Below, piece after piece: positions 2,981-9,750 of a stretch of DNA of 14,122 nucleotides. Position 1 is the stretch's first letter. Every line of letters starts with the position of its first letter. A model generated the notes under the pieces. The model was not told where the DNA came from. It was given only the letters and a program-made list of their open reading frames with translations, and ran no database searches. The stretch is from an uncultured Cytophagaceae bacterium. GTDB lineage: Bacteria; Bacteroidota; Bacteroidia; Cytophagales; Microscillaceae. A program made the position numbers and the translations under genes. Where the stretch lies: positions 1 to 14,122 of the forward strand of contig CALDJV010000935.1 of NCBI GenBank assembly GCA_937899305.1, read 5' to 3'.

Positions 2981-4654
2981 CTAGGCAAGTCGTCCATCCG
3001 CTCTCATTTTATTGTAATGTTCGGGAGTGAGCTCAGCCACTGGAATGCGAAACACATTCATGGCTAACCCATCTGATATATGCTCCTGCTCATTGTCTAT
3101 TTCTTTTTTCCCTTTTTGCACATACTGGAGCTTGTTCAATCCTGGAAAAGTTTCTACCAATTGACCATTAGGGTCTTTTACCCACCAATGTTCATAGCCA
3201 ATTTTATCTGGTCGCTCATGCATACAAATTTTCCAAGTGTTTTTGGTTCCAAGTGGCAACACACGCAAGCCGTAGCTCTCAATTGTATTGATCATCACTT
3301 GTTGAGTAGCCTGCTTTACGGCCTTTTTTCTTGCTTTCCCAATTTTTTTGGCACTCCCCTGCCTACGGCTCACTTCTTTCAGATGAGTTACTGTAGCATC
3401 TAAACGTTCTCGAGCATTGTCAAACCTATTTTTTTCTGCTTCATTTAACTCATTTTGTACAAACATCGTGTATGCATCATCCCGTCCTAAACCAATCCCA
3501 GTTCCTCCTACATTGGATGGTACTTGGCTACTTACATAACCAAACATCGCGGTAGATTTTGGTACTCTCACATCTTCTGAAACTGCTCCAAGTAAGGCCC
3601 AATTCCAACAAGCAGGTCCATCAACAGACTTTTTCGTTTGAGAGGCCTCAAACTCCGCTTGAGCTTCTTCATCTAAGATAGTAGGCCCTAACTGGGAGCT
3701 TTCATTCTTTTTAAAATTCTTAAGTTTTACTGGTTTCTCATTCTCTTCTGCCATAATACCGCCTGCAAGCACATACAATTCACCTGGCTGAAATTCCCTT
3801 TCTACATCTTGAACCGTACCGTCGTAACTTAGTATCTTGTACACTTTTCTGGGCAAAGGTATCTTGGTATTGGTGCCCCAGATTTTTTTTAAAAATGATT
3901 TATCATTTACTGTCACCACTGTACCTTCTGGCAAAGTTCCTACCCTCTGTCCACTTTTGTTATAAACAGCCCTGTCACTCACATCACCTTTTTTGGAGGT
4001 ATGGTTTTTTATCTTGGTATTGATAATCCTCTGAACAGGAGAGGCCAAACTAAGTGTACTGGTGTTTGTTTCATTAGAAGAAACCTTTTCATCTGCTTTT
4101 CTTTGCAAAGGCTGCGCCGCCATTTGGTCGACTACTTGCTCTCGGGTGGTGTCTACCGATTGGCCGTTGACTACCTGGTCGCCTTTTGGAGTTCCATTTT
4201 TTGCATTGTCTATGGCGTGAGCCACTTCATGTTTGATGTTCGACTCAGTATCCTTGCCTGGAGCAAAGTCAATCTTGCTCCCCTGAATGGTGGCTTCGGC
4301 ATTGACTGTGTCTGGAAAAGGTGAATTATGATTGGCCTTCAAGCTCGACGTATCTACCCCATGTTGCTGCCCCATGGTGGTGGCTATTTCCTTGAATTTG
4401 GCCGAGCCTTGAGGTTGTTTGGTTTGTCCAGCCGAATTACGCTGCACTGGCTTTTGTTTGGCCTGAACGGGACGTTGCTTGGCTTGAATTGGTTTTTGTT
4501 TGGCCTGAACAGGGCGTTGCTTCGCTTGAATCGGCTTCTGCTTGGCTTGAATGGTACTTTTGCTTTGGGCTTTAGCTGATTTATTTGGTTCAACTGACTG
4601 TTTGCTTTGGGCTTGGGTGTTGTCGTTATGATTAGATGATGCTTGTTGATGCAT
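2981..4654 (-). CDS. Multidomain protein: N-terminal Q/K/P heptad repeats + DUF4157 (zincin-like HExxH) domain + C-terminal putative papain-fold Cys/His domain; polymorphic-toxin/effector-like
   Basis: Residues about 92-150 (MGQQHGVDTSSLKANHNS...NAEATIQGSKIDFAPGKDTESNIKHEVAHAIDN) fit the DUF4157 pattern. That pattern is M..FG.DFS.VR.H...A.A.T.G..I.F..G.......HE.AHxxQ, with the HExxH motif. Residues 36-71 are five copies of QAKQ[KR]P[IV]. In the C-terminal 330 aa, Cys349 sits in GPACWNWALLG and His489 in IGYEHWWVKD. Their 140-aa spacing is reminiscent of the papain-like Cys...His-aromatic arrangement. No signal peptide is evident. Confidence 0.7.
   Translation of the reverse strand: MHQQASSNHNDNTQAQSKQSVEPNKSAKAQSKSTIQAKQKPIQAKQRPVQAKQKPIQAKQRPVQAKQKPVQRNSAGQTKQPQGSAKFKEIATTMGQQHGVDTSSLKANHNSPFPDTVNAEATIQGSKIDFAPGKDTESNIKHEVAHAIDNAKNGTPKGDQVVNGQSVDTTREQVVDQMAAQPLQRKADEKVSSNETNTSTLSLASPVQRIINTKIKNHTSKKGDVSDRAVYNKSGQRVGTLPEGTVVTVNDKSFLKKIWGTNTKIPLPRKVYKILSYDGTVQDVEREFQPGELYVLAGGIMAEENEKPVKLKNFKKNESSQLGPTILDEEAQAEFEASQTKKSVDGPACWNWALLGAVSEDVRVPKSTAMFGYVSSQVPSNVGGTGIGLGRDDAYTMFVQNELNEAEKNRFDNARERLDATVTHLKEVSRRQGSAKKIGKARKKAVKQATQQVMINTIESYGLRVLPLGTKNTWKICMHERPDKIGYEHWWVKDPNGQLVETFPGLNKLQYVQKGKKEIDNEQEHISDGLAMNVFRIPVAELTPEHYNKMRADGRLA
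4442..4549. repeat. In-frame imperfect 21-bp tandem repeat x5 (encodes QAKQ[KR]P[IV]) inside the 557-aa CDS
   Basis: The nucleotide period is visible directly: ttgcttggcttgaattggtttttgtttggcctgaac is repeated with small substitutions. The protein-level heptad repeat confirms it. Confidence 0.8.
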
Positions 4655-5255: not shown

Positions 5256-6917
5256 ATGAAATTGAAAAGTATTTTTATAATAGGTTTATTGTTCATTCAA
5301 GTAGGGATGGCCAACGCCAAAACTCCTACCCCTTACAAATTCCCCTACCCCGTTTTCCATTTTTCTAATATTTATTGGGTAGTAGCCAGTGATAGCACCG
5401 ACAAACCTCCCAAAAACTGGTTCAATCTCGATGCCAAGCAGGATAATATTCGTGGAGTGAGTACCGAAAAAACGTATCAGACCTTGTTGAAAGGCAAAAA
5501 ATCTACTACAGTAGTAGTAGCCGTGATCGACTCGGGCATAGATACCAAACACCCTGATTTGAAAAAGCAGATTTGGGTAAACCCCAAAGAAAAACCGGGC
5601 AACGGCAAAGACGATGACAAAAATGGGTATGTGGATGATATAAATGGTTGGGATTTTATCGGCGGAAAAGACGGCAAAGATGTGGATATAGATACCTATG
5701 AGCTTACCCGGGAATTGCTTCGTCTGGAGAAAAAATTTGCCGATGCCGACCCTGAAAAGATACGCAAGAAAGACAAGAAGGAATATGAGAGTTATCTTAA
5801 AATAAAGAAAACACACGCCAGTAAATACGGTGAGGCGCGTCAGACCTACGCAGTGATCACTCAAATCAAAGCAGCTTATCAAGTGGTTCAAAAAGCACTT
5901 GGCAAAAAAGATGTCAAAAAAGAAGACCTTGATAACCTCAACAGTGAGGACGCGGAGGTAGTGCAAGCAGCTCAGATTCTAAAACGAGCCATTGGATTTG
6001 GCCTTCCCTTGGGTCAGATAGAGGAAGCCCACAAACATTACGAAACCATGTTTAAATATTGGTTGAACAAGGATTTTAACCCCCGCAATATTGTAGGAGA
6101 TAACTACAAGAAGTTGAATGAAAAAGGGTATGGTAACAATGAGGTACAGGGCCCTGACGCAGATCACGGAACTCACGTAGCAGGGATTATCGGAGCCGAC
6201 AGAACCAATGATGTGGGTATCAAAGGAGTAGCTGACAATGTCAAAATTATGGTATTGAGAGCAGTGCCCAATGGAGACGAAAGAGACAAGGACATTGCCA
6301 ACGCCATTCGTTATGCAGTAGACAATGGGGCACGCATCATCAACATGAGTTTTGGTAAGTCTTATTCTCCTAACAAAGAATTTGTTGACAAGGCGGTAAA
6401 GTACGCCCAAAAGAAAGGAGTATTGTTGATACACGCTGCAGGTAACGACGGCGCTAACTTGGACGAAGCAGCTAATTTTCCTAATAAAAAATTCAAAAAC
6501 TCTAAAAAATCGGCCAAAAACTGGATTGAAGTAGGTGCTTCTTCCTGGGGAGACGAGAAGAATTTTGTGGGTAGTTTTTCAAACTATGGTAAAACTGCAG
6601 TAGATGTATTTGCCCCTGGGGTAGCCATCAACTCTACCATTCCTGACAATAAATACACTGAGCATGACGGAACCAGTATGGCCGCTCCGGTAGTATCTGG
6701 AGTAGCTGCTTTACTGATGTCTTACTTCCCTGAATTGAGCGCTGAAGATGTAAAGGAAATCATTCTGAAGTCATCAATTAAGTACACTGATAAGGAAATC
6801 AACAAACCGGGTAGAGGTAAAAACACCATTAAATTTGGTGAATTGTCAGCAACTGGGGGTATTGTCAATGCATACGAAGCCGTAAAAATGGCTCAAAACT
6901 GGAAGGATAATAAGTAG
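5256..6917 (+). CDS. Secreted subtilisin-like serine peptidase (S8 family)
   Basis: The catalytic triad motifs are present: Asp in VVAVIDSGID, His in DADHGTHVAG, Ser in GTSMAAPVVSG, plus the oxyanion Asn in HAAGNDG. A signal peptide MKLKSIFIIGLLFIQVGMANA begins at an internal ATG (about 5256). The ORF-track start at 5205 is probably upstream of the true start. A charged insert of about 180 aa lies between the catalytic Asp and His. Confidence 0.9.
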   Translation: MKLKSIFIIGLLFIQVGMANAKTPTPYKFPYPVFHFSNIYWVVASDSTDKPPKNWFNLDAKQDNIRGVSTEKTYQTLLKGKKSTTVVVAVIDSGIDTKHPDLKKQIWVNPKEKPGNGKDDDKNGYVDDINGWDFIGGKDGKDVDIDTYELTRELLRLEKKFADADPEKIRKKDKKEYESYLKIKKTHASKYGEARQTYAVITQIKAAYQVVQKALGKKDVKKEDLDNLNSEDAEVVQAAQILKRAIGFGLPLGQIEEAHKHYETMFKYWLNKDFNPRNIVGDNYKKLNEKGYGNNEVQGPDADHGTHVAGIIGADRTNDVGIKGVADNVKIMVLRAVPNGDERDKDIANAIRYAVDNGARIINMSFGKSYSPNKEFVDKAVKYAQKKGVLLIHAAGNDGANLDEAANFPNKKFKNSKKSAKNWIEVGASSWGDEKNFVGSFSNYGKTAVDVFAPGVAINSTIPDNKYTEHDGTSMAAPVVSGVAALLMSYFPELSAEDVKEIILKSSIKYTDKEINKPGRGKNTIKFGELSATGGIVNAYEAVKMAQNWKDNK

Positions 6918-6949
6918 TTTTTTTAGTTTTAAAGTCAATAGTTTTCTTT

Positions 6950-7021
6950 AGTTGGTAGTCCGTAGTTTTATTTAGTTGGTAGTCCGTAGTTTTATTTAGT
7001 TGGTAGTCCGTAGTTTTATTT
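6950..7021. repeat. Perfect 3 x 24-bp tandem repeat (AGTTGGTAGTCCGTAGTTTTATTT)
   Basis: Three identical head-to-tail copies start about 33 nt after the subtilase stop. Degenerate AGTCC(A)-containing copies follow at about 7022-7050 (agtccacggtcgacagtccatagtccacag). Confidence 0.9.
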
Positions 7022-7168
7022 AGTCCACGGTCGACAGTCCATAGTCCACAGTAGCGCGATGCGGAACAATTAGCTTTTGGTCCTTGGTTGACTAATTGAA
7101 TGAAAAATGATACGCCGCTTTGCGCAACCCGAAGTCCTGAGCGAAGCCGAAGGAACTAGCAATGCAGC

Positions 7169-7291
7169 AATGAGCCGAAGGCGGAACAATGTAACAATAG
7201 CAATAAGTCATCGCTTTGCGAAACAATTAAACAATGAGCCGAAGGCGGAGCAATGTAACAATAGCAATAAATCATCGCTTCGCGAAACAAT
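7169..7291. repeat. Two near-identical ~59-bp direct repeats (period 64 bp) with degenerate partial copies upstream
   Basis: The unit aatgagccgaaggcgg[a/g]acaatgtaacaatagcaataa[g/a]tcatcgctt[t/c]gcgaaacaat occurs twice. Related fragments (gcgatgcggaacaat, gagcgaagccgaagg, ccgctttgcgcaaccc) lie at about 7055-7168. Each unit carries an imperfect internal inverted repeat, gccgaaggcg / cgcttcgcg. Confidence 0.85.
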
Positions 7292-7367
7292 AGTCCAGAG
7301 CTGATGAAATCGAAAAGTTATTTTTTCAGCTTTAATAAACGTAAAAAATTGACTATATCAATAATTG

Positions 7368-7400
7368 GTCTCGCAGGTATTTTACTTGCGAGGCTTTTTT
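7368..7400 (+). terminator. Intrinsic-terminator-like hairpin + U-tract, 17 nt upstream of the start codon of the next gene
   Basis: The sequence is GGTCTCGCAGG-tatttta-CTTGCGAGGC, a roughly 10-bp stem, followed by TTTTTTATAT. This pattern exists only on the plus strand. It could end the subtilase/repeat transcript or act as a leader attenuator for the three-gene operon. Confidence 0.45.
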
Positions 7401-7416
7401 ATATCTGAGCATTCCC

Positions 7417-8040
7417 ATGAAAATATATTTTACCCTTGATGAACTTCCTGAACAATATCAAAAACAATTCAAGGCCGGATTTGACCTCAATCATCTCCAG
7501 CAATTTTACCCTGCCACCAATCCTTATGGCACTACCCTATTTACCCTGATTGCCTTTGGCTTGCCCGCCATTTTGGTCATCGTTTTAGTAATCATGGCGC
7601 TTTTTCAGCCTATGGCCAACCCTCCTCAAACCACCCAAGATTGGCTCATTTTTGTTAGTATTGCCGCTTTTCTATTACTCATTCTGGGTGGCCTCGCTTG
7701 GTGGATTGTTCGGGTATTCAAAAACTTTCGAGTTGTTTCTCAAATTAAAAAGATACGCAAGGAAAAAGGGCTTAGTCACTATGGATTGCTCTTAGATGAA
7801 CACTTGGTGTACCGGCCCATTGCTACCCAAAAACCAATACTGATGTTACCTAAAGACTTGGTCCGTCGGGTAAAGCAAGTGTCTCAACGGGTAGAAGGCA
7901 GCAACCGACAATACTTACAACTGATTTACTTTGATGAAGACCAACAGCAGGAGTTTTATGTCGAGATGAGCCGCTATGAACTAGATAAGCAGTACACTCA
8001 AGGCAGGACCCTGAGTACCATTATAGAAAAATGGAAATAA
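7417..8040 (+). CDS. Hypothetical 2-TM inner-membrane protein (paralogue of the gene at 8683-9363)
   Basis: It has a 207-aa ORF with an ATG start. The N-terminal cytoplasmic motif is QKQFKAGF...LQQFYP. Two hydrophobic helices follow (FTLIAFGLPAILVIVLVIMALF and LIFVSIAAFLLLILGGLAWWIV). The C-terminal domain of about 100 aa has a conserved YRP motif. It is clearly paralogous to the third gene of the cluster. Confidence 0.7.
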   Translation: MKIYFTLDELPEQYQKQFKAGFDLNHLQQFYPATNPYGTTLFTLIAFGLPAILVIVLVIMALFQPMANPPQTTQDWLIFVSIAAFLLLILGGLAWWIVRVFKNFRVVSQIKKIRKEKGLSHYGLLLDEHLVYRPIATQKPILMLPKDLVRRVKQVSQRVEGSNRQYLQLIYFDEDQQQEFYVEMSRYELDKQYTQGRTLSTIIEKWK

Positions 8041-8044
8041 AAAT

Positions 8045-8617
8045 ATGAAGTACACATCGAAAAATAAGTATCAAATAGGGTGGTTGATTGTATGGGGTAT
8101 TTGCCAATGGCTTACCGGGTGTTACCCCATCTACCTCGAAAGGTCTAAAGCCAATGGGGAAATGCGAACGGTGAAAACCTGGCATTTTACCAGAAACCTA
8201 GTCAAGCACAAATCACTGACCTCAGATGGAAAACTTGTCAAACGATTTTATATCTCGCCTAGTGCCCGATGCTTGTCTCGCCAAGACATCAAACTCATCA
8301 AAAAACAATTGAGGACCAAAAAAGTCAGGTTTACAAACTATACCATCTACTCACAAGATTGCAAAGCTGTATTTTCACTCTCGGTAGACGATTACATTGC
8401 TCCTTTTTACCGCATTTCAATTCCCATGATCAAGACAAATGGGAAAATATTTATCAATCATTGCCTTCAGGATAACCCTCCCCTTGCGGAATTGCTTGTC
8501 ATTGAAAAACTACTCCGTAAGGAGTTTTCAGCAGATGTAGTAAAAACCATTCTGGCTCGTTATAAAAGAGGTACGCAACGGTTTGTCAGGCGTCATTATC
8601 ATCGAACGAGGCATTGA
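8045..8617 (+). CDS. Hypothetical protein, putative lipoprotein (lipobox L-T-G-C at Cys26), very basic C-terminal tail
   Basis: It has a 190-aa ORF that starts 4 nt after the previous stop. The N-terminus MKYTSKNKYQIGWLIVWGICQWLTGC has a positively charged n-region, a hydrophobic h-region and an LTGC lipobox. The C-terminus is RYKRGTQRFVRRHYHRTRH. No recognisable domain. Confidence 0.55.
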   Translation: MKYTSKNKYQIGWLIVWGICQWLTGCYPIYLERSKANGEMRTVKTWHFTRNLVKHKSLTSDGKLVKRFYISPSARCLSRQDIKLIKKQLRTKKVRFTNYTIYSQDCKAVFSLSVDDYIAPFYRISIPMIKTNGKIFINHCLQDNPPLAELLVIEKLLRKEFSADVVKTILARYKRGTQRFVRRHYHRTRH

Positions 8618-8682
8618 AGCAGGTCATCAACAAGGCGCTAAAACCAACTCAACCAGGTTCTTTAATCAAACGATTTAGAAAA

Positions 8683-9363
8683 ATGCAGGTATATCATTCG
8701 TGGAAAGACTTTCCAATTTCCTGTCAAAAACAATTGAAAGAAGGTTTTAATACTCAAAATCTCAAGGATTTTTATCCAACATCTACCAACTTCTGGATGT
8801 ATTTGCTTGGGACGGTTTTATTAGGCATTCCAGGATTCATTGCCAGTATTTGGGGAGTCATTGCTATAGTAGATTTGCTATTTTTTCAGGATAATTTTTC
8901 TGATTCTTCTAGTATAAGCGACACCATTGTATTGGTGGTGGCCGTTTTGATTGTCCTCATTCTATTGATCGCTTTTTTTATTTGGGGAATCAACCTATTC
9001 ACCAATTTTATGAGAGCCATCCAAATAAAGCAAGGCCACAAAAAACAACGGGTATATTTTGGTTTGTGGTTAGCCACCGATGCACTCATTTACCGTCCAC
9101 GATTGGCAAATAAAAAACCGATCTATATTTCTAAAAAACAAGTAACTAAAGCCGAATGGCATTCCGAAATACTCCCTTCAGGTTCGGGTGGAGGCAAACA
9201 TCAAGTATACTTTAGTTTGATATATTATCACGATTCAGTTCAAAATGTCGAATACCATATTAGGATTGACCAAGAAGCACTGGATGCCCAATACTTGCAA
9301 CAAAGGGAGGTGTATCAAATTGTAAATGATTGGCTGACCAAAAAGGGGAAAAGGAGGCATTGA
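8683..9363 (+). CDS. Hypothetical 2-TM inner-membrane protein (paralogue of 7417-8040)
   Basis: The ORF track opens at a TTG at 8614 that overlaps the preceding stop. The first ATG, at 8683, gives an N-terminus MQVYHSWKDFPISCQKQLKEGFNTQNLKDFYP. That aligns residue for residue with MKIYFTLDELPEQYQKQFKAGFDLNHLQQFYP of the first gene. Two TM helices follow, then a conserved block GL.L....L[VI]YRP....KPI. The true start is uncertain between 8614 and 8683. Confidence 0.65.
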   Translation: MQVYHSWKDFPISCQKQLKEGFNTQNLKDFYPTSTNFWMYLLGTVLLGIPGFIASIWGVIAIVDLLFFQDNFSDSSSISDTIVLVVAVLIVLILLIAFFIWGINLFTNFMRAIQIKQGHKKQRVYFGLWLATDALIYRPRLANKKPIYISKKQVTKAEWHSEILPSGSGGGKHQVYFSLIYYHDSVQNVEYHIRIDQEALDAQYLQQREVYQIVNDWLTKKGKRRH

Positions 9364-9750
9364 CTTTCGAGACCTGATTACAGTTATTTTTTACCGATCA
9401 TGTTTAAGAATTAGCATCAATCATACACTATTACCAAGGCATATTTGTGCTTGTCTTGCCTCGCTATGAAACCATCTGTCTGTCTCATACGTTACACAAA
9501 AGAGAAAAAATCCTAACAAAGGAATAAGAATCAATCAACTTATCAATTATCAGAGTTAAGATGCTCTGAAATCCACTTCTTCACCTTACTTAGGTGTCTT
9601 CACTAACCGGTGATTATACCATTAAATTCACTTTGGAAGGTTGTAGTTTTTAGGTGCTCACTCTTCAGGTAGCAGTTGCGTAATTAGGGGCAATTTTGCT
9701 CACCCTGCTACCCTACAAACTTTTCATGAAGCAAAACCACAGCACATTTT

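Follow-up and report, generated by a model that had tools for sequence, protein, structure and literature searches.

The bacterial interspersed mosaic elements (BIMEs) of enterobacteria are mosaics of repetitive extragenic palindromic (REP) sequences plus other motifs, and the BOX elements of Streptococcus pneumoniae follow the order boxA-boxB(n)-boxC, with boxA and boxC complementary to each other. Cyanobacterial short tandemly repeated repetitive (STRR) heptamers and small dispersed repeats (SDRs) are intergenic tandem heptanucleotides and very short GC-rich hairpin units. Miniature inverted-repeat transposable elements (MITEs), such as Correia and ERIC, are non-coding and dispersed, have a length of 100-500 nt, and can be co-transcribed with neighboring genes. 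The REPs of the GTAG and CGTC super-families, of enterobacteria and pseudomonads, have palindromic stems of 5-13 bp with a GTAG or CGTC tetranucleotide at one end, are associated with the gene of a Y1 transposase, which they flank, and often lie no more than 20 nt from the 3' end of the preceding open reading frame (ORF) (Di Nocera et al. 2013, PMC3733652). In this study, we analyzed a 14,122-bp stretch of DNA (the window), which is one whole contig of a metagenome-assembled genome (MAG) built from short reads, with a focus on the tandem repeats in the spacer downstream of its S8 subtilase gene. The closest relatives, marine bacterium AO1-C (81% identity of the subtilase) and Microscilla marina (71%), place the window in the Microscillaceae, Cytophagales. 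We conclude, with a probability of about 80%, that the region represents a single member of a family of mosaic intergenic repeats, strand-polar and high in copy number, in an uncultured species of this group. The family is apparently undescribed so far; literature searches found no description of a matching repeat.

The subtilase gene occupies 5256-6917 on the plus strand (Pfam PF00082, E = 1e-56; an exact 553-aa product is on record). An earlier note had described two tandem arrays 3' of it, AGTCCA copies after the first array, and degenerate copies upstream of the ~59-bp unit of the second, all of which are real. Tandem Repeats Finder (TRF) returned a period of 24 with 3.6 copies and 98% matches (6939-7024), within which the unit AGTTGGTAGTCCGTAGTTTTATTT is present in three perfect copies (6950-6973, 6974-6997 and 6998-7021), and degenerate 24-mer copies extend upstream as far as the stop codon at 6915. 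The AGTCCA copies form a period-7 heptamer tail (4.4 copies, 7022-7052). The second array has a period of 64, with 1.9 copies and 95% matches (7168-7291), a full 64-nt comparison of 7160-7223 with 7224-7287 gives 91% identity, and a third, degenerate and partial copy lies upstream at 7113-7160. Within the 14-kb window, GCCGAAGG and CGCTTYGCGMAAC (three occurrences each) are confined to this spacer, which also contains seven of the eight matches to TAGTCCRYAG, and none of the dinucleotide shuffles reached the observed counts of these motifs. The count of 24-mers depends on a MAG assembled from short reads: a separate ENA assembly of this DNA (L005) has two copies, not three, which may reflect collapse by the assembler, and contigs from four other samples all end within the arrays. 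Two Logan contigs (k = 31; L001 and L003), from two samples, both start at window position 7255, inside the second 64-bp unit, where the window itself has no shared 31-mer, and this common start may point to an additional copy, or a variant form, in the two samples.

A search for further copies, which the earlier note had recommended, established that the modules of these arrays belong to a dispersed family with many loci. The exact 23-mer GAAGTCCTGAGCGAAGCCGAAGG (7131-7153) matched 53 loci in a metagenome collection, 35 of them contigs of a single assembly, ERZ1740067 (coverage 4-9x, GC 0.39-0.46), which have long flanking similarity to the window insert. ERZ1740067 also contains the orthologous subtilase locus (L075), with flanking genes 97.4-98.6% identical to those of the window, and its contigs therefore sample the same species. 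With elements defined by 12-mers common to at least four loci, 53 elements were found in 234 kb, none of which overlaps an ORF of at least 120 aa, and beyond the selecting element on each contig the density is about one element per 10-13 kb. In the window, such 12-mers cover the interval 6914-7324. A protein search with the ORF at 7107-7304 returned short ORFs from further contigs of NCBI/ENA, with MIRRFAQPEVLSEAEGTSN or RFAQPEVLSEAEGT in common and tails that are unrelated; at least 12 spurious ORFs read from family copies are present in public protein sets. Scanning a genome collection, whose species representatives do not include the source MAG, with GAGCCGAAGGCGGARCAATG gave nine matches, seven of them due to chance or to coding sequence of high-GC genomes; one was relevant, a related element at a non-orthologous site of the Microscillaceae MAG UBA11690 (L014), which has the AGTCAATAGTT..AGTTGGTAG words of the family and, in tandem, AGCAATRAGCCGAAGGCGRAACAATGA units. 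Family elements were not found in ~20 kb each of AO1-C and M. marina, a BLAST comparison of the insert with ~20-kb orthologous stretches of AO1-C, M. marina and L017-19 gave only 12-13-nt matches, and searches of plasmids, phages and viral contigs gave no match to the family.

Two further observations concern relatives of these sequences. The L014 element (6538-6881) is composite and lies in a divergent spacer, with ATTG-word and CAAT-word arms forming a long imperfect inverted repeat around CATTGTTCC-GCGATGCAAT-GGAACAATG. The exact 23-mer also occurs in about ten unrelated non-coding contexts, on contigs of GC 0.34-0.70 (L022, L024, L025, L031, L035, L038, L042, L044, L048, L051, L058, L063 and duplicates), including positions 5' of tRNA genes, directly before start codons, and within GCGGCGGC/GCCGCCGC stems. 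Beside these unrelated 23-mers, GTCATCCTGAGCGAAGCGAAGGATC-type sequences form long palindromes, a 37-nt version is common to L044 and L058, and a search of 11 such loci against Rfam found tRNAs only, with no family covering the 23-mer.

All 35 of these ERZ1740067 contigs show one polar mosaic of ordered modules, in which 5' TAGTT/TAGTCC words are followed by a ACTAATTGAATGAAAAATG block, by CGCTTCGCGCAAC plus the core, and by variable runs of GAGC(C)GAAG(G)CGGAACAAT and ATCGCTTCGCG units. The conserved order can be written as words-H-K-S-core-(n/g/e/S/F/Q)n. The 5' part consists of T-rich TAG words and TAGTCC/GGTCGA heptamers, the modules before the core are H (ACTAATTGAATGAAAAATG), K (AAAACGTAAAGTGAAAAGTG) and S (ATCGCTTCGCGCAAC), the variable run 3' of the core is composed of n (AACCATTTAAC), g (GAGCCGAAGGCGGAACAAT), e (GAGCGAAGCGGAACAAT), S, F and Q, and the 3' end is ragged and A-rich, with RCAAT. 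Internal arrays are present in other family copies too, with periods of 14, 16, 23-27, 33, 43, 49, 66 and 121.

The window copy has, on the plus strand, the order words, three 24-mers, heptamers, GTAG-palindrome, H, S, core, g-S, g-S and TAGTCC; K, found in most family copies, is missing. It begins with a T-rich TAG-word leader, TAGTTTTTTTAGTTTTAAAGTCAATAGTTTTCTTT (6915-6949), which in other copies also stands directly 3' of stop codons. The three perfect 24-bp copies (6950-7021) are a local amplification of three of the 5' TAGTT/TAGTCC words of the family; the exact 24-mer is unique to this locus, and single diverged copies occur in other elements (e.g. L028, with two mismatches). The heptamer words AGTCCAC/GGTCGAC/AGTCCAT (7022-7051) recur in most family copies, and the GTAG followed by the mini-palindrome CGCGATGCG and GGAACAAT (7051-7070) has its equivalent in the GTAG-CGCAAAGCG-G of other copies. 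Downstream lie the H module (7091-7109) and then the S module (CGCCGCTTTGCGCAAC), the core 23-mer and AACTA (together 7113-7157). The 64-bp array (7172-7288) is two of the standard g-S units of the family, each composed of a g module GAGCCGAAGGCGGARCAAT (7172-7190 and 7236-7254) and an S module ATCGCTTYGCGAAAC (7210-7224 and 7274-7288), and a terminal TAGTCC word (7291-7296) marks the 3' edge of family sequence. The part made of family modules, i.e. of 12-mers common to at least four other loci, spans 6915-7297, with sharing that ends at ~7297. An AT-rich hairpin, GCTGATGAAA...TTTTTTCAGC, then TTT (7300-7330), belongs to the inserted DNA but is not a high-copy module, and is common only to L075/L076 and, in part, to L049 and L062. 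The sequence TGAAATCGAAAAGTTATTTTT (7305-7325), with an A-rich block ~20 nt further on, recurs outside the high-copy family at L049 699 (minus strand) and L062 3282.

Comparison with related species established that the copy was inserted at this site. In AO1-C (L016) and in an 82% relative (L017-19), only 73-74 nt separate the subtilase stop from the orthologue of the downstream 207-aa gene, in the order TAA, 6-10 nt, AAAATTTGACTAT..., the same terminator hairpin, a T-run and ATG. The window spacer measures 499 nt and keeps the TTGACTAT block and the terminator at 7343-7400, with ~420 extra nt 5' of them; given the short orthologous spacers with their conserved block and terminator, this segment (6918-7342), which holds the whole finding, is a lineage-specific insertion between the stop codon and the ancestral terminator region. 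The ancestral block AAAAAATTGACTATATCAATAATTGG (7343-7368) is conserved in AO1-C and L017, and the intrinsic terminator of the subtilase gene (7369-7400; a 13-pair stem plus T-run in a terminator scan) is also found in AO1-C, L017 and M. marina. Just 5' of it lies a palindrome, ATTGACTATATCAAT (7348-7362), with a counterpart, TTGACTATTTCAA, in AO1-C (L016 11680-11700). The subtilase stop is TAG (6915-6917) and doubles as the first TAG word of the element, whereas the orthologous genes in AO1-C (L016) and L017 end in TAA. The copy thus sits between a stop codon that it now supplies and the ancestral terminator, and, judged by this position 5' of the terminator, is probably transcribed as a long subtilase 3'-untranslated region (3'-UTR).

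Within the species, the copy is unstable. In two other metagenomes (L075 and L076), the same species has junctions identical to those of the window and an element of only ~160 nt, which is without the 24-mer array, the heptamers, H and the core, and in L075 one e-S unit stands in place of the two g-S units. The arrays of the window are thus recent internal expansions or contractions, in line with the recent expansion that the earlier note had named, beside selection, to account for perfect copy identity. Since H and the core belong to the modules of the family, the simplest origin of the short form is a deletion between repeated S and TAGTTTTA words. The triplication of the 24-mer was gained recently, in the lineage of the window.

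Elements of the family are restricted to intergenic DNA and frequently touch the stop codon of the gene before them. Their spacers are tandem (14 sense and 9 antisense), divergent (7) or convergent (6), a mix close to background, and they therefore have no specificity for gene class or orientation. Of the 22 elements that follow a co-oriented gene, 15 start no more than 10 nt from the stop of that gene. That stop is TAG in 12 of the 22 cases, compared with 40 of 163 other ORFs (Fisher p = 0.005), and in eight it is the element's own first TAGTTTTTTT word.

The GC-rich units of the family resemble a known DNA structure. Hirao and colleagues describe GCGNAGC and CCGAAGG as extraordinarily stable GNA-triloop DNA mini-hairpins, which are known at single-stranded DNA (ssDNA) priming sites, reportedly bind single-stranded DNA-binding protein poorly, and are much weaker as RNA (PMC13037366). 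The e, g and core motifs of the family are literally GCGAAGC, GCGCAGC, GCGTAGC, GCCGAAGGC and CCGAAGG; in the literature, however, the motif is known from phage and plasmid ssDNA priming sites and from promoters, whereas here candidate hairpins, recognized from sequence, make up a dispersed chromosomal family. Within elements, 160 of the 161 instances of the pattern GC{n}GNAG{m}C have n equal to m, compared with 21 of 45 elsewhere. Among 50 g and 47 e units, variation is 0-4% in the stems and 28-42% at the middle loop base, while the A at the third loop position does not vary (0%); GC stems enclose GAA in 76 cases, GCA in 15 and GTA in 12, and GCC/GGC stems enclose GAA in 31, GTA in 9 and GCA in 3. 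This is the sequence rule of GNA triloops, with a C-G closing pair, G at loop position 1, A at position 3 and any base at position 2. Moreover, one C and one G are the sole difference between the window g and the L075 e at the corresponding position. From the conserved stems and the variable middle loop base we infer single-strand hairpins, which suggests that the GC-rich units behave as local mini-hairpins on the strand carrying the CAAT words. The imperfect stem GCCGAAGGCG/CGCTTCGCG once proposed for each unit fared worse: ~50 copies show no compensatory variation, and the pattern fits local mini-hairpins of 2-3 bp. Long-range e:S and S:core stems were likewise rejected for lack of covariation. 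A hammerhead-like CTGATGA...GAAA at 7300-7312 was also discarded, with no space for stem II and no Rfam match.

Starting from what the comparisons establish, i.e. dispersal, insertion at this site, internal instability, restriction to spacers and contact with stop codons, a mechanism can be proposed. Arrays would grow and shrink through slippage or unequal recombination between short repeated words, and the GC-rich motifs GCGNAGC and GCCGNAGGC would act as GNA-triloop mini-hairpins on one strand, most plausibly in ssDNA, with GAGCGAAGCGG and GAGCCGAAGGCGG among the candidate sequences. That such ssDNA mini-hairpins and the short direct words together favor slippage or unequal recombination, and perhaps also help an enzyme that acts on ssDNA to recognize the element, seems to us to have somewhat less than an even chance. 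The family may spread as a non-autonomous element, through an HUH/Y1-type enzyme acting on ssDNA hairpins or by gene conversion, and would have no subtilase-specific function; any effect would be generic, e.g. protection of mRNA 3' ends as proposed for REPs. One could go further and postulate a new class of strand-polar, non-autonomous element, made of strings of GNA-triloop mini-hairpins, that spreads via ssDNA (by an HUH-type enzyme or by priming and template switching) and lands preferentially on stop codons with its own TAG, its 23-26-nt core (GCGAAGC plus CCGAAGG, two mini-hairpins side by side) being a very small cross-phylum unit; this we regard as a doubtful extension.

Several points weigh against our reading of the region as a copy of a spreading repeat family. 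Nearest-neighbor folding, which leaves out the sheared G-A pair, was no better than shuffles for the region as RNA or DNA on both strands (z of -0.28, -0.69, -0.32 and +0.93), and the hairpin statistics count sequences that are related by descent, not independent events. The suggested number of hundreds of elements per genome is a rough extrapolation from one per 10-13 kb on metagenome contigs chosen for carrying the core, not from a closed genome. Insertion is read from a single filled-versus-empty site comparison, in which the other species have a protein identity of ~81%. The copies and ten neighboring ORFs yielded no transposase, no terminal inverted repeats and no clear duplication of a target site, which leaves mobility a hypothesis, with gene conversion between copies as a possible alternative. 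These ten ORFs, beside or between elements and read by eye, appear to be ordinary housekeeping proteins, with no transposase or REP-associated tyrosine transposase (RAYT) seen among them. Finally, contact with stop codons could be a sign of host-level function instead of insertion bias.

This last point leads to a genome-wide element domesticated by the host, whose copies would provide sites for an abundant DNA- or RNA-binding protein, or stabilize or terminate mRNAs at their 3' ends, and which would be compatible with a selfish origin. The strictly intergenic copies that abut stop codons, the position of the window copy 5' of a terminator and its probable transcription, and the similar placement of REPs (PMC3733652) all fit such a role. 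However, elements favor no class of spacer (divergent, convergent or tandem) and no orientation, their content at one locus differs greatly among strains, the ~20-kb samples of AO1-C and M. marina have none, and there is no folding signal; we therefore consider domestication unlikely.

Mobilization as a classical MITE by a DDE transposase is far less probable. The family is dispersed and non-coding with a length of 150-500 nt, and its junctions contain a possible TA/AGTA duplication (AAGTA/G ... TTAGTA/AACG in L075, the slashes marking the junctions), but this duplication depends on one inferred empty site, and the spacer of the relatives is much diverged. Terminal inverted repeats are lacking, 3' ends are ragged and the architecture is polar; the only inverted pair spanning the region is AT-rich, matches at 70% over 27 nt and has its right arm in ancestral DNA, and the ends of family copies are non-complementary. 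Among the three roles once considered for the arrays, MITE- or REP-like debris comes nearest, in that the elements are dispersed like REPs, whereas neither a classical MITE nor, given the ordered polar modules, debris is supported.

The other two roles, a structured 3'-UTR or small RNA regulating the subtilase or the downstream gene and a set of regulator sites specific to the subtilase, fail on several counts. The position between a stop codon and a strong terminator and the repeated GC-rich motifs would suit a locus-specific RNA, but the segment is missing from the orthologous spacer of the nearest species and shrinks to ~160 nt in a same-species strain, its minimum free energy z-scores are not significant, and no sigma-70-like promoter lies within it. 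An Rfam scan of the whole window at E<=1 returned only the terminator, which looks like the 3' end of Spot 42 but, at 26 bits, falls short of the gathering score of 80. The same modules, moreover, are present at dozens of unrelated loci and adjoin unrelated housekeeping genes, and a subtilase-specific role is very improbable.

A purely local slippage product, i.e. a minisatellite with no relatives elsewhere, would account for the perfect identity of the 24-mer copies and for the confinement of the exact 24-mer to this locus, but every module, including a diverged single 24-mer, recurs in other elements, and the core is present in 35 other contigs. Slippage of this kind holds only for the last amplification step of the 24-mer, and as an explanation of the whole region it deserves hardly any weight. 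A small protein gene, read from the 65-aa ORF at 7107-7304 or from MKNEKRKVKSGRFAQPEVLSEAEG..., can be practically dismissed: although ORFs called from several copies have RFAQPEVLSEAEGT in common, their tails and lengths (33-72 aa) are wholly different once the common DNA core ends, the differences between module offsets are not multiples of three (H at -40, -57, -61 and -81), a period of 64 nt does not keep the frame, Pfam gives no match, and the only database relatives are short ORFs from other repeat copies, as expected of the spurious ORF it had been taken for.

The remainder of the window is less directly related to the repeat. Downstream of the terminator lies the 207-aa gene (7417-8040, plus strand), with no assigned function. 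Upstream, on the minus strand, 165-2714 encodes a bacterial protein of 849 aa that is homologous to the major vault protein (MVP) of eukaryotes (PF11978 MVP_shoulder, 1.8e-30; Vault_3; Band_7), and an MVP-like gene adjoins the subtilase in AO1-C and L017 as well. Between the two, at 2981-4654 (minus strand), is a 557-aa ORF without Pfam domains that contains a 42-bp (14-codon) coding tandem repeat at 4448-4551; its position in the same-species L075 is taken by a protein of 756 aa that is for the most part unrelated and gives a faint match to eCIS_core, and the slot beside the MVP-like gene is thus variable. About 1 kb at 8660-9640, with a 249-aa DUF975-like ORF (8614-9363), is found in the window and in L001-L003 and is missing from the same-species L075/L076, i.e. 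a gene presence/absence polymorphism. A second, distinct dispersed repeat lies at 74-152, at the left contig end and just 3' of the MVP-like gene; it reads TTTGATTATAAAAACCAGGGGAAGAAATTCACCAATTTTGAACACCCTACCTGACAAGTTTTGAAAACCTGCCAGGTA, ends in a palindrome of the CCTGACAGG...CCTGTCAGG type, is 88.6% identical to L052 2302-2380 and partially matches L057 3103-3138.

Recognition of a repeat family at this locus removes a tempting but wrong reading of it as a subtilase-specific RNA or regulator, explains why short-read assemblies all break there, and documents a repeat family in the Cytophagales, whose interspersed repeats are little described. Three traits are unusual, namely the ordered polar mosaic, the 5' end that supplies the upstream TAG stop, and units that match an ultra-stable DNA mini-hairpin. 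If these hairpins exist in the living cell, the family would offer a natural setting in which to examine repeat expansion, replication pausing or HUH-type mobilization as effects of ssDNA mini-hairpins. In practical terms, the modules are strain-level markers, with repeat number unstable between the window and L075/L076, and a source of spurious ORF calls.

With respect to known systems, the family differs from Correia and ERIC in having neither terminal inverted repeats nor a demonstrated target duplication, and in a length that varies via internal arrays, but is likewise non-coding and dispersed, 100-500 nt long, and possibly co-transcribed with its neighbors. It shares with STRR and SDR sequences the tandem intergenic heptamers, the short GC-rich hairpin units inside other repeats and lineage-specific bursts, whereas the words differ and the heptamers here belong, as a single module, to a larger element with a fixed order. 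Its likeness to REPs and BIMEs is broader: the elements are high-copy, extragenic and close to ORF 3' ends (53 in 234 kb, none in an ORF, 15 of 22 within 10 nt), they are mosaics of small GC-rich palindromes and other motifs, and they show clustering, tandem reiteration and variation between strains. However, the palindromes (GC-NNN-GC, GCC-NNN-GGC and CGC-NNN-GCG) have stems of 2-4 bp with 3-nt loops instead of 5-13 bp, head-to-head dimers are absent, and no RAYT was found among the ten neighboring ORFs read by eye. GTAG stands directly 5' of CGCGATGCG/CGCAAAGCG in one module (7051-7063), and the abundant g, e and S units are without a GTAG or CGTC tag. The family also differs from REPs and BIMEs in its polarity and fixed module order, in consisting mostly of AT-rich word arrays (TAGTT/TAGTCC and RCAAT), and in its occurrence in divergent spacers too. 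Pneumococcal BOX elements, compared here by organization, belong to another phylum and possess a terminal complementarity of the boxA/boxC type that the family lacks, but they too are dispersed and intergenic, with a fixed module order and an internal module in variable tandem number. By analogy with these systems, the family may work like REP/BIME or BOX elements, often within 3'-UTRs.

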